A stretch of 19,043 bases of DNA, from IMG/VR virus record IMGVR_UViG_2529292831_000013; one strand, written 5' to 3'. A program made the position numbers. Every line of letters starts with the position of its first letter. Position 1 is the stretch's first letter. The DNA comes from a virus (lineage: Duplodnaviria > Heunggongvirae > Uroviricota > Caudoviricetes). This document shows positions 9,301-12,300 of this stretch, one piece after another.

Positions 9301-12300
9301 GATAGCAGCGGGCTTCAAGGGGCTTTTACCTCATGGTAAAAAGTCACGGATTCAGTGTGATGATGACGAAGGCATTATGATAGACAGTTGTGTGGCTCGG
9401 TTGAGAAGGTATAAACCAGAGGAATATGAGCTCATCATAGCCCACTTTGTTATTGGTATCTCATTACGCACTATTGCCAAAAAGAGAAGGTGTTCAGATG
9501 GCACGATTAGAAAGGAATTACAAACTGCAATTGGTTTTGTAGAGGGTATTACGAGCGTTATTGCATGTAAATAAAAGCTAAAAGCCACCGTAGTGGCTTT
9601 TAGCATTTTAGGATTGTGCAGGTAATGTTTTGTTCAATTTAGTAAAGAAGTTAGATTGGCTTGTTACAGTACGTCGACTCTTTCCAGAAGTACTCAACTG
9701 AAAGAAATCATTGATGCTTTTGGGTTGAGTTCTTTCATAGGCTTGCTTAAGTGACATGTGTTCCCCTTGTCTATTTGTTGCTATGACCGTGAAAAGTAGT
9801 GATGGTTCAGTTCTTTTGCAAAATAGTGCTTACGTTTAACCCAGATAAAACCATCAGCTTTAGAAATGATTGCAACATCTATGGGGCCTCCCACTGTTTC
9901 AGTATCATCGGAGACCTTGCGCTTGAAAGCGGTTAAATTTACTAATGATTCAGCCATATAAGCTAAATCTTGCTTGGGTAAAAACTCGATCATATTTACG
10001 ACTTTGTCAACATAGTTTTCTCGGACAAAGCTATCAATACGCCCCTTGCAATCGGAAACAGTTCTGCGCACTACATCAACTATAGCATCCTTGGCTCCTT
10101 CGATATCTGAAGTGGGCACCAAATCTGTGATTACTGAATCAATACCATCAAGTAAATCGCCGATAGAACGTTGATACTCAGCATGAAGATTTTGGATAAG
10201 ATGTGAACTAGCTCCTTGCATGAAAGCAGAAACTTCATCCTCTTGCGCAAAGGGAGTCACGCCGCAATTAGGAGTGATGCAGCACTTGTCAGCATCTGTG
10301 GTTTTCCTTATTTTATCATTAAAGAAGCCACAAACTTCATATGATAATACTTTAGGGTAATAGTCTTTATCGCCATAACCTGCAATCACAATCCCAGAGA
10401 CGGAACCAATATCACTTTGCTTGCATATCATAGCTGCCAATACATCACTAACTGCTTTTGTCAACTGTGGAGTTATGGATATTGAATCAAAGTCACTAAA
10501 CTTTTGAGCAATGATGCGTTGGGTAATTGATGAAGCATAGGTTTGGGCTGCTTGTTCATCATCCGGAGTAAAACCATCAAAGTAATTAATATCAGATAAT
10601 TTTGTAAGGAGATCGTTGCAATAATTCGTGAGGTCTGTAACAAATTGATTCTTATCGAAGTTAACGAGATATGTTGGTTCGAGACCTTCAGAAAAAGCAT
10701 CAACAAGCATGCTGAATACAATCTCGCTCAGGAAGTGATAAAGATGAGCCTCACGCATACCTGGTGTGATGATTGATTTAGCTGACTGTAGATAATTGAA
10801 GAAATCCTCAGCATATTCCTCCAAAGAGTCAAAACATTTAGAGCCTAAATCCTTTCTATAAGCCTTAATGATAAGCTCCCATGGAGCTGTGCAGAGATCA
10901 CCAGTTCCATATACCATCAAACCTACAGGATGATGTTTAGTGAGAGCGAAAAGCTTTTCAGCGCCATTATAGATTTTATGTTTGCCGCCTCCAGAAATCG
11001 TTACAGCTGAATCTGCGGCTAAAGCTACTGCGGTCTTGTTAAATACGGCTATTTCTGCTGTCATTTTTTACATAGGGTTTATATGTTGTGTAATGAGAAA
11101 AATACAAAAAAATTAACGCGTACGCAAAAATTCTTGTAATCTGTTAAGAGTGGTTACTTCGCCACACAGCTTAAACCCGCCGTCGAGCGGGTTTTTTTGT
11201 ACCTGTAAACTTGGTGCAGTACGGTAAACACGCTGGTGGTAGTGAATACTGACTTTTTATCTTGCTGGCTTTTTAGACAAGAGTTATTGGTATGTCATGT
11301 TAACCAGAAGGGAAAAAGACATGCTAAAACAGCAAGATATGACAGAAACGGCGAAAGTTGTTTTTAATGAATTAAGCATCGAACCGGCAACAGTCGGGGA
11401 GATTGCACAAAACACATACCTTTCACGCGAACGCTGTCAGTTAATACTGACCCAGTTGGTTATGGCGGGGCTGGCAGATTACCAGTTCGGCTGTTACAGA
11501 CGTCTTCAGCAATGAAGGGCTTTTAATTTGTGAAAATGGGCGGCTGGTGGGTGTTGGTAGCACCTGCCAGCCATTCGCTCATGCTTACTGGTCACAAGCG
11601 AACCACGGCCCACTGCTTTAGCGCAAAAGCAGAGTGAGCCTACCAGAGTTACGCTTACTGATCCATGAAAAATACTGTAAAAATAAACAGTGTTGATTTA
11701 ATCAACGCTGATTGCCTGCATTTTATTCAGTCCCTGCCTGATGATTCCATTGACCTGATTGTTACCGATCCGCCTTACTTCAAGGTGAAACCCAACGGTT
11801 GGGACAATCAGTGGAAAGGGGACGAAGATTACCTTAAGTGGCTGGACCACTGTCTGGCCCAGTTCTGGCGGGTGTTGAAACCTGCCGGAAGCCTTTACCT
11901 GTTCTGTGGGCATCGCCTGGCATCTGATATCGAAATCATGATGCGTGAACGCTTTAATGTGCTGAACCACATTATCTGGGCGAAGCCGTCCGGACGCTGG
12001 AACGGATGCAACAAGGAAAGCCTGCGGGCGTATTTCCCGGCAACAGAGCGCATTCTGTTTGCTGAACATTATCAGGGGCCATACCAGCCCAAAAATGACG
12101 GCTATGCGGCAAAGGGGCGCGAGCTTAAACAGTGCGTCATGGCCCCGCTGATTTCTTACTTTCGTGATGCGCGAGAATCTCTGGGAATAACATCAAAACA
12201 GATAGCGGAAGCCACCGGAAAGAAAAACATGGCGTCACACTGGTTTGGTGCCAGTCAGTGGCAGTTGCCGAACGAGGCTGATTACAAAAAACTTCAGGCG

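Follow-up and report, generated by a model that had tools for sequence, protein, structure and literature searches.

A two-gene accessory cassette next to the antiterminator gene Q of a lambdoid-like prophage, encoding a predicted proteasome-fold hydrolase and a proposed small partner protein

The stretch of DNA analysed here, referred to below as the window, comprises 19,043 nucleotides (nt) of the IMG/VR virus record IMGVR_UViG_2529292831_000013 (Caudoviricetes). On its minus strand, next to an antiterminator Q gene (9212–9574), the window carries a two-gene cassette that spans positions 9577–11107. The cassette consists of a gene for a protein of 427 amino acids (aa) with a predicted proteasome-beta fold and of a small open reading frame (ORF) of 49 aa downstream of it, and it is considered very probable that the two form one functional unit.

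The cassette and its two genes

The following features were assigned to the cassette:

9781..11064, minus strand: coding sequence (CDS) of the 427-aa protein with a predicted proteasome-beta fold (RefSeq WP_000123148.1, 'hypothetical protein'; PHROG 5990, a family without a function)
9761..9768, minus strand: Shine–Dalgarno-like AAGGGGAA, 3 nt 5' of the ATG of the small ORF, read from the sequence
9608..9757, minus strand: unannotated 49-aa ORF (MSLKQAYERTQPKSINDFFQLSTSGKSRRTVTSQSNFFTKLNKTLPAQS), the proposed partner gene, taken from the ORF listing and without annotation in RefSeq
9577..9604, minus strand: hairpin resembling an intrinsic terminator, 12 pairs followed by TTTTATTT, from a terminator scan and the sequence; 4 nt past the stop of the small ORF and 3 nt from the stop of the convergent Q gene
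11078..11107, minus strand: possible promoter (TTGTAT, 18 nt, TATAAA), its end some 14 nt 5' of the start codon of the 427-aa gene; read by eye and a weak guess

The large gene is an ORF of 427 codons whose product has the N-terminus MTAEIAVFNKTAVALAADSAVTISGGGKHK / MTAEIAVFNKTAVALAADSAVTISGGGKHKIYNGAEKLF, and on reading it again the Met-Thr start and the Asp placed 16 residues after the Thr were found as the initial annotation had given them. The possibility of a spurious ORF was rejected, as more than 6,300 clusters (at 90% identity) match the protein, all of them of approximately 425–435 aa and all named 'hypothetical'. The only match in PHROGs was to the unnamed family 5990. The GC content over the gene is 0.38–0.40 against 0.49–0.56 in its flanks, and the gene lies antisense between the Q gene and a block of methylase, tRNA and holin genes. 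The genome of ETEC-2265 contains an identical stretch, for which the order of the RefSeq annotation is Q, the antisense 427-aa gene, a small hypothetical gene, a DNA methyltransferase, tRNA-Thr, tRNA-Gly and holins. The 427-aa gene is an AT-rich acquired gene, in a slot between Q and the lysis genes and opposed to the late operon; the earlier description of it as AT-richer than its neighbours and as cargo in this slot agrees with both the composition and the ETEC-2265 annotation. The RefSeq gene set of the surrounding element (hokD, DUF968, rusA, Q, iss/bor, ylcI and nohD) gives it the appearance of a defective lambdoid prophage of the DLP12 kind.

The initial annotation had regarded the 427-aa protein as standing alone. 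This view had to be abandoned, as a small ORF on the same strand follows the large gene in 127 of 140 distinct relatives, and the copy in the window (9608–9757), which starts 23 nt past the stop of the 427-aa gene, has a ribosome binding site and a terminator. The 140 relatives, which underlie all conservation figures given here, are distinct family members taken from GTDB genomes and viral contigs and represent more than 15 phyla. In nearly every GTDB locus the start of the small ORF is no more than a few bases away from the stop of the large gene, and the two often overlap in the ATGA manner. In the Providencia phage PSTRCR_117lys and the Streptococcus satellite Javan103, the small ORF behind the large gene carries a CDS annotation. 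The small ORFs form subtypes that track the clades of the large protein. The window copy belongs to the enterobacterial subtype, which is conserved in 11 distinct versions with invariant M1, Q5, Q11, D17, F18, F37, F38 and L41. The pairwise differences of this subtype at codon positions 1, 2 and 3 number 409, 323 and 775, respectively, and this excess at the third position is the signature of a translated frame.

The general and commonest type of the small protein has a basic N-terminus, the motif [YF][RK]S.xE[FYW]E[KR]x[YF][FL]P and a second segment DPxx[FL]GxxLAxxxLxxI. A profile of this type was built from 21 sequences bearing the motif, iterated and searched against 23,113 six-frame segments (1.35 Mb), which gave 43–44 matches at E<=1e-3, all of them directly 3' of a gene for a proteasome homolog and on the same strand. 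Seventy-nine general-type small proteins have already been called in public databases, all unnamed and none with a Pfam domain. The one member of this type that was modelled was predicted to have three helices without a compact fold (predicted local distance difference test (pLDDT) score 80, predicted template modelling (pTM) score 0.37). The 49-aa protein of the window gave no PADLOC family at E<=0.01, and the small protein has no recognisable DNA-binding antitoxin domain.

With regard to expression, a promoter scan gave no call at the candidate promoter (11078..11107). Similarity to other lambdoid phages resumes at approximately position 11098, which means that this candidate lies partly within shared sequence. 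Just upstream of the cassette start, on the plus strand, there is a strong intrinsic terminator (11173–11194) with an 8-bp GC-rich stem followed by TTTTTGT, and the homologous region of phage SfV is annotated as 'terminator'. It is probably a tR'-like terminator of the late operon, which would place the insertion of the cassette between Q and the late promoter and terminator region.

Predicted fold and active site of the 427-aa protein

Profile scans of the 427-aa protein with Pfam, NCBIfam and PADLOC (PADLOC-DB v2.0.0, E<=10) resulted in zero matches, with none from Pfam even at E<=10, and a phmmer search against the PDB gave nothing relevant. Its membership of the proteasome fold was assigned because of structure and catalytic residues and not by a sequence family model. 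Structure prediction and fold search gave an alpha-beta-beta-alpha sandwich superimposable on the proteasome beta subunit. In the fold search the more distant N-terminal nucleophile (Ntn) hydrolases penicillin V acylase and acid ceramidase ranked below the proteasome-type matches, which included alpha subunits. The best match among the predicted viral structures of BFVD was a phage 'proteasome beta type-2 subunit'. On this predicted structure the protein has a proteasome-beta fold, and its identity as an Ntn-threonine hydrolase is held with high confidence. The earlier proposal of an Ntn hydrolase thus stands on the predicted fold and has no counterpart in Pfam.

What was not retained from that proposal is a specific likeness to HslV (ClpQ). 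In its structure the model resembles 20S beta, Anbu and BPH more closely than HslV, the 427-aa protein is more than twice the size of the compact HslV (approximately 175 aa), the Gly-Ser-Gly sequence is absent and there is no HslU. The earlier statement that no HslU-type ATPase lies nearby is in agreement with the annotation of the locus, which contains no AAA+ gene.

The residues and regions to which the fold assignment refers are as follows:

11059..11061, minus strand: codon of Thr2, the predicted N-terminal nucleophile after removal of Met1 (MT[AST] in 140/140 relatives)
11011..11013, minus strand: codon of Asp18, the equivalent of proteasome Asp/Glu17 (100% conserved; aligned with Glu17 of the Thermoplasma acidophilum beta subunit by HMMER)
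10954..10956, minus strand: codon of Lys37, the equivalent of proteasome Lys33 (100% conserved; AEKLF against KKLF of T. acidophilum beta)
10417..10776, minus strand: helical insertion 1, approximately residues 97–216, after the core helices H1/H2
10009..10206, minus strand: helical insertion 2, approximately residues 287–352, between the core helices H3 and H4 (model helices 287–315 and 318–360; mean column identity 0.25)

Methionine aminopeptidase trims a Met that precedes a Thr. In the 427-aa protein the Thr is residue 2 and the Asp residue 18, so that removal of Met1 would number them Thr1 and Asp17; Lys28, Lys30 and Lys37 follow. Conservation is 100% for T2, D18, S19 and K37 and 99% for K30, a pattern well beyond what chance would give. 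Of the catalytic Thr/Asp/Lys spacing suggested in the initial annotation, the Thr and the Asp hold, with the Lys33 equivalent now placed at K37 (in AEKLF) and not at the lysines of GGGKHK. The absence of a propeptide is likewise supported, and the Met-Thr start is invariant.

When a profile of the family was compared with the PDB, residues 5–43 and 392–409 aligned collinearly with residues 4–39 and 168–185 of the Thermoplasma beta subunit (E ~0.8), placing Asp18 opposite Glu17 and Lys37 opposite Lys33; the N-terminal stretch alone was not significant. The C-terminal TVGGPIDVAIISKADGFIWV aligns with ASGGMIDVAVITRKDGYVQL of the T. acidophilum beta subunit. With hhalign, for which the T. acidophilum sequence was checked against the PDB, only the C-terminal 20 residues were aligned, with a probability of 41%. 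Of the proteasome-like motifs claimed previously for the central and C-terminal parts, the C-terminal one is thus the one that was recovered. At about the place of Gly-Ser-Gly (Ser129), before helix H3, an invariant Ala273-Gln274 was found instead, and E389-T-V-G-G stands where 20S beta has D-S-A-S-G-G.

The extra mass of the protein over the ~200 aa of 20S beta lies in the two helical insertions. Their mean column identity is 0.25–0.28 compared with 0.71–0.87 in the beta-sheet core and H4. In a survey of proteasome homologs, it was argued that insertions located in the H1/H2 loop and between H3 and H4 conflict with the assembly of rings and double rings (Fuchs, Alva and Lupas, 2021, Bioinformatics 37:4694; PMC8665760).

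It should also be noted that the only long stretch of low confidence in the model (pLDDT <50) is formed by residues 21–35 (approximately 10960–11004 in the window), a hairpin between the second and third strands which includes the highly conserved Lys30. Possibly this hairpin is a flexible flap covering the active site, which takes on an ordered structure once a partner or substrate is bound.

Distribution and genomic setting

Among 5,426 complete E. coli genomes, nine carry the large gene and its surrounding DNA, whereas the flanking prophage sequence is present in more than 3,000. In nine enterotoxigenic E. coli (ETEC)-type genomes the cassette is intact and 100% identical. Beyond E. coli, full-length relatives with 32–45% identity were found in at least 331 GTDB species (one genome per species was scanned), including archaea, and they span gammaproteobacteria, Bacteroidota, Planctomycetota, Bacillota, Actinomycetota, Chloroflexota, Cyanobacteria, Methanosaeta, ANME-1, Methanosarcinales and others. 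The family is rarely carried by plasmids (10 of 72,556). A relative is encoded by 196 IMG/VR contigs, and among 125 flanking proteins in viral contigs there were 16 of the antiterminator Q type and 14 cI-like repressors. Sites adjacent to Q and to cI are two classical positions of accessory genes in lambdoid prophages.

In Klebsiella prophages a relative of the 427-aa protein occupies the same place in the same orientation, between Q and holin. Thirteen GenBank phage records carry a relative, and seven of these records belong to Streptococcus satellites in which the pair lies at the extreme end of the genome. In these seven satellites, elements of approximately 8–14 kb, the relative (28–30% identity) and a 55-aa CDS come last, directly after a putative transcription regulator; the region concerned in Javan103 is 9274–10653. 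The pair is thus cargo of Gram-positive satellites too. In Serratia a copy lies after the primase of an int-alpA-pri island; the Tai immune genes have been described from the accessory region downstream of pri in phage-inducible chromosomal islands (PICIs; PMC11364771). A copy in Alteromonas is cargo of a small island with an integrase and a GPA-type replicase, one in Vibrio parahaemolyticus adjoins a type I restriction-modification (R-M) system among variable neighbours, and one in Pseudidiomarina adjoins Upx. When five genes (>=70 aa) were examined to each side in 79 loci from as many GTDB species, no large neighbour, an ATPase included, proved to be conserved, with the commonest neighbour family being present in five loci.

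The position behind Q was also compared among related prophages. E. coli prophages whose rusA-Q region is 90–93% identical hold other antisense two-gene cassettes at the same position (L179, 4228–5791; L183, 4722–6285; L180, 4726–6240; also L181 and L182). One of these alternative cassettes encodes proteins of 343 and 179 aa, without a family match. Those of the other have lengths of 292 and 128 aa, the longer one matching the PADLOC defence candidate PDC-S42 with an E value of 2.8e-53. This Q allele is immediately followed by a site that behaves as a hotspot of cassette swapping. A tRNA-linked or integrase-linked insertion was considered and rejected in favour of such a swap slot.

Several other features of the prophage were recorded. 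On the far side of the cassette from Q, an orphan N6/N4 DNA methyltransferase (11665–12711, plus strand) was recognised by the PADLOC model MTase_II (E=2.5e-151), with no restriction enzyme adjoining and with tRNA-Thr and tRNA-Gly following at approximately 12880–13033. A small hypothetical gene and a methylase adjoin the cassette in PSTRCR_117lys as well, but on the opposite side. The same prophage carries the bor-like serum-survival lipoprotein gene iss (15677–15970, minus strand) and the type I toxin gene hokD (approximately 7199–7354, plus strand). Between the gene of a DUF2254 membrane protein and the hokD region there is an AT-rich operon of three genes (4154–6185, minus strand; GC 0.30–0.34), which looks like a further acquired island. 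It encodes an ATPase of the ParA/AAA_31 type (276 aa), with a weak and short match to the PADLOC candidate PDC-M28B (E=3.8e-5), and two proteins (168 and 231 aa) without a family match. In ETEC-2265 the gene of the large terminase is split by the IS66-family insertion sequence (IS) ISCro1, and copies of IS3 and IS100 flank the region (L001, 19935–24567, downstream of the part that corresponds to the window); the prophage of this strain is therefore defective, yet its cassette is intact.

Proposed role and comparison with known families

According to the structure prediction and the fold search, the product of the large gene is a cytoplasmic enzyme with a proteasome-beta fold. Its Met1 would be removed and the Thr would act as an alpha-amino nucleophile together with Asp17 and the Lys33 equivalent, as suggested by the absolute conservation of these residues and by the established chemistry of Ntn hydrolases and methionine aminopeptidase. 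The hypervariable insertions would sit where 20S subunits make their ring and inter-ring contacts, and therefore the enzyme probably does without an ATPase and does not assemble into a barrel like that of the proteasome; target specificity is probably determined by the insertions. The second gene is linked to the first in the loci described above, and its product, a predicted helical protein of approximately 50 aa presumably made from the same transcript, is probably the cognate partner of the enzyme, either as an inhibitor (a pseudo-substrate, comparable to an antitoxin) or as a dedicated substrate. The cassette would be expressed from the prophage in the lysogen, independently of the late operon. 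Judging from its genomic location it would most likely serve in conflicts of mobile elements, as an anti-phage or abortive-infection defence, in exclusion or in addiction, with proteolysis being unleashed when the partner is displaced or lost.

On the genomic location, the chances of a conflict or defence role are put at nearly even. The reading as a whole, namely that of a mobile conflict module in which an N-terminal-threonine hydrolase is regulated by, or acts on, a small partner, is considered an evenly balanced one. More tentative is the form of it in which the pair represents an immune or abortive-infection module of two genes that is very widespread in bacteria, archaea, prophages and phage satellites and has so far escaped recognition, with a non-ring, ATPase-independent threonine protease of proteasome fold, a peptide of approximately 50 aa that restrains it or is processed by it, and the insertions as a sensor or specificity domain; this form is possible but doubtful.

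A number of observations weigh against the conflict module. At the level of sequence alone the link to the proteasome is weak (no match to PF00227 in Pfam, a PDB profile E value near 0.8 and the hhalign probability of 41%). The secondary shell of 20S beta (Ser129, Asp166 and Ser169) is not conserved among the 140 relatives, and the likely equivalent of Gly47 of the oxyanion hole, G53 in MVYGTGD, is conserved in only 76% of them; the chemistry of the enzyme could therefore differ, for example towards that of a ligase or an amidase. For the small ORF, the hhalign comparisons of the window-type family with the general type and the other small-ORF families were not significant, and its equivalence to them therefore rests on position, size, strand and coding signature. 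A comparison of the gamma type with the general type did give an E value of 1.3e-4, which is not independent as three sequences were common to both alignments. Neither of the two proteins matches a PADLOC v2 model, in line with the earlier remark that no described phage-defence system is known to be built on a stand-alone HslV-like protease, and PDC-S42 in the alternative cassette is itself a candidate defence gene only. The GTDB neighbourhoods are mixed and include housekeeping genes; a scan of 148 flanking proteins also gave Upx, R-M systems and toxins. Finally, in PSTRCR_117lys the pair is co-oriented with the late genes and lies directly upstream of the holin, an orientation which would also fit a part in the lytic cycle of the phage itself.

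Of the other explanations, the one that survives best, although it was judged unlikely, is a processing or ligation of peptides in the manner of connectase. In this case the small protein would be the specific substrate, which is cleaved, cyclised or ligated to a target through a linear motif, and the product would be the output, with a role that need not be defence. The one strongly conserved linear motif in an otherwise variable small protein would suit such a substrate, as would a secondary catalytic shell unlike that of the 20S proteases. However, the motif is predicted to be helical and not extended, the core helices and insertion sites of the 427-aa protein differ from those of connectase (see below), and the placement of the pair in accessory slots of prophages and satellites is left unexplained.

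Somewhat less likely again is an addiction module comparable to a toxin-antitoxin system, in which the enzyme is a toxin and the labile small protein an antitoxin, and which only stabilises the element that carries it without acting on incoming phages. The arrangement of two genes with a small second gene abutting or overlapping the first, often in the ATGA manner, is that of type II toxin-antitoxin systems; the pair occurs on prophages, satellites, integrative islands and a few plasmids, and hokD in the same prophage is a type I toxin. Against this, plasmids are rare carriers of the family and the small protein has no recognisable DNA-binding antitoxin domain. Many toxin-antitoxin systems act in defence too, and to that extent this explanation overlaps with that of a conflict module.

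It would also be conceivable, if improbable, that the protease benefits the phage in its lytic cycle or in counter-defence, for example by cleaving an immune protein of the host or a phage protein during development. The strand and position of the Providencia pair point in this direction, as do the 196 viral contigs with a relative. In the window and in the Klebsiella prophages, however, the gene is antisense to Q and the late genes and has its own terminator; the family is also found outside prophages, in chromosomal islands, beside R-M systems and in archaeal genomes, and it is fixed in no phage lineage, as seen from the contrast in E. coli between nine genomes with the gene and more than 3,000 with the flanking phage sequence. 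A housekeeping ring protease that compartmentalises itself and degrades misfolded proteins like HslV or the 20S proteasome would share the proteasome-beta fold and the catalytic triad, but is very improbable given the patchy and mobile distribution, the lack of an AAA+ partner both in the locus and in the 79 GTDB loci, and the large, hypervariable insertions at the H1/H2 loop and between H3 and H4, which were argued to be incompatible with rings (PMC8665760).

The locus provides one of the largest orphan families of proteasome homologs with two handles, a cognate mini-protein expected to be a regulator or substrate of the enzyme and an accessory-slot setting, and the latter predicts a phenotype, either exclusion of phages or a toxicity that is relieved by the partner. 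Enzymes of the proteasome family are otherwise known as ring-shaped degradation machines, together with one ligase, connectase. If confirmed, the module would add threonine-protease chemistry to the prokaryotic conflict repertoire and would represent a proteasome fold that works without rings or ATPases; an immune module, if true, would be the first case of a defence system based on an enzyme of the proteasome family and would give a first function to any of the 22 orphan families. Regardless of the phenotype, a 'hypothetical protein' becomes a proteasome-like Ntn hydrolase and a small gene that had been missed is added.

The closest known relatives are the uncharacterised proteasome homologs of which 22 families were catalogued by Fuchs, Alva and Lupas (2021; PMC8665760). 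Among these, the PMI families are proteasome homologs with multiple insertions. A long insertion follows H1/H2 in PMI-3 and PMI-4, while the site between H3 and H4 is occupied by an insertion in PMI-2 to PMI-6 (PMC8665760). PMI-4 (representative HDY66466.1), the largest and most diverse of the PMI groups, is listed in Proteobacteria, Firmicutes, Actinobacteria, Bacteroidetes, PVC, Cyanobacteria, other bacteria, Euryarchaeota and phages (PMC8665760). From its architecture and taxonomic spread, and with PMI-4 compared by its published description only, the 427-aa protein is most probably a member of PMI-4. Both have a proteasome-beta core without a propeptide and without an associated ATPase, the insertions after H1/H2 and between H3 and H4 match the model blocks at residues ~97–216 and ~287–352, and the spread of the GTDB, viral and phage relatives equals the PMI-4 listing. 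The suggestion that the protein was something undescribed is accordingly probably not correct with respect to the family, which is likely to have been catalogued in 2021 without a function. The authors of the survey reported neither an informative genomic context nor an AAA+ partner (PMC8665760), in contrast to the small downstream ORF and the accessory slots of prophages and satellites seen here; the conserved mini-gene partner and this setting are what is new with respect to the earlier work. A literature search, which included the accession and the papers citing the survey, found no paper that gives a function to such proteins or links them to phage defence.

With the 20S beta subunits (MEROPS T1; PsmB of T. 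acidophilum, PDB 1PMA) the 427-aa protein shares the invariant N-terminal Thr and the equivalents of Asp/Glu17 and Lys33, as well as the C-terminal motif GG-x-[IV]-D-V-A-x-I. It differs from them in its length (427 aa against approximately 200 aa), in the lack of an alpha subunit, a propeptide and an ATPase, in the absence of the conserved Ser129/Asp166/Ser169 shell and of a significant match to PF00227, and in its location on mobile elements with a small partner. Connectase is a monomeric archaeal proteasome homolog that acts as a sequence-specific protein ligase; it is restricted to methanogens, and its substrate is MtrA and not a co-encoded mini-protein. It lacks H1/H2 and has an insertion of two helices between the strands S3 and S4 (PMC8665760), whereas the 427-aa protein retains H1/H2 and has its insertions elsewhere.

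In its setting, the pair is most readily compared with the accessory ('moron') cassettes that occupy immunity hotspots of prophages and satellites, such as the variable slots of P2/P4 and the PICIs. Like these it is AT-rich, has its own terminator, is antisense and is swapped at its site. The copies downstream of pri in the satellite-like island and at the ends of the Streptococcus satellites show the same likeness, and it is in the very slot behind Q that PDC-S42 is found in place of the cassette.

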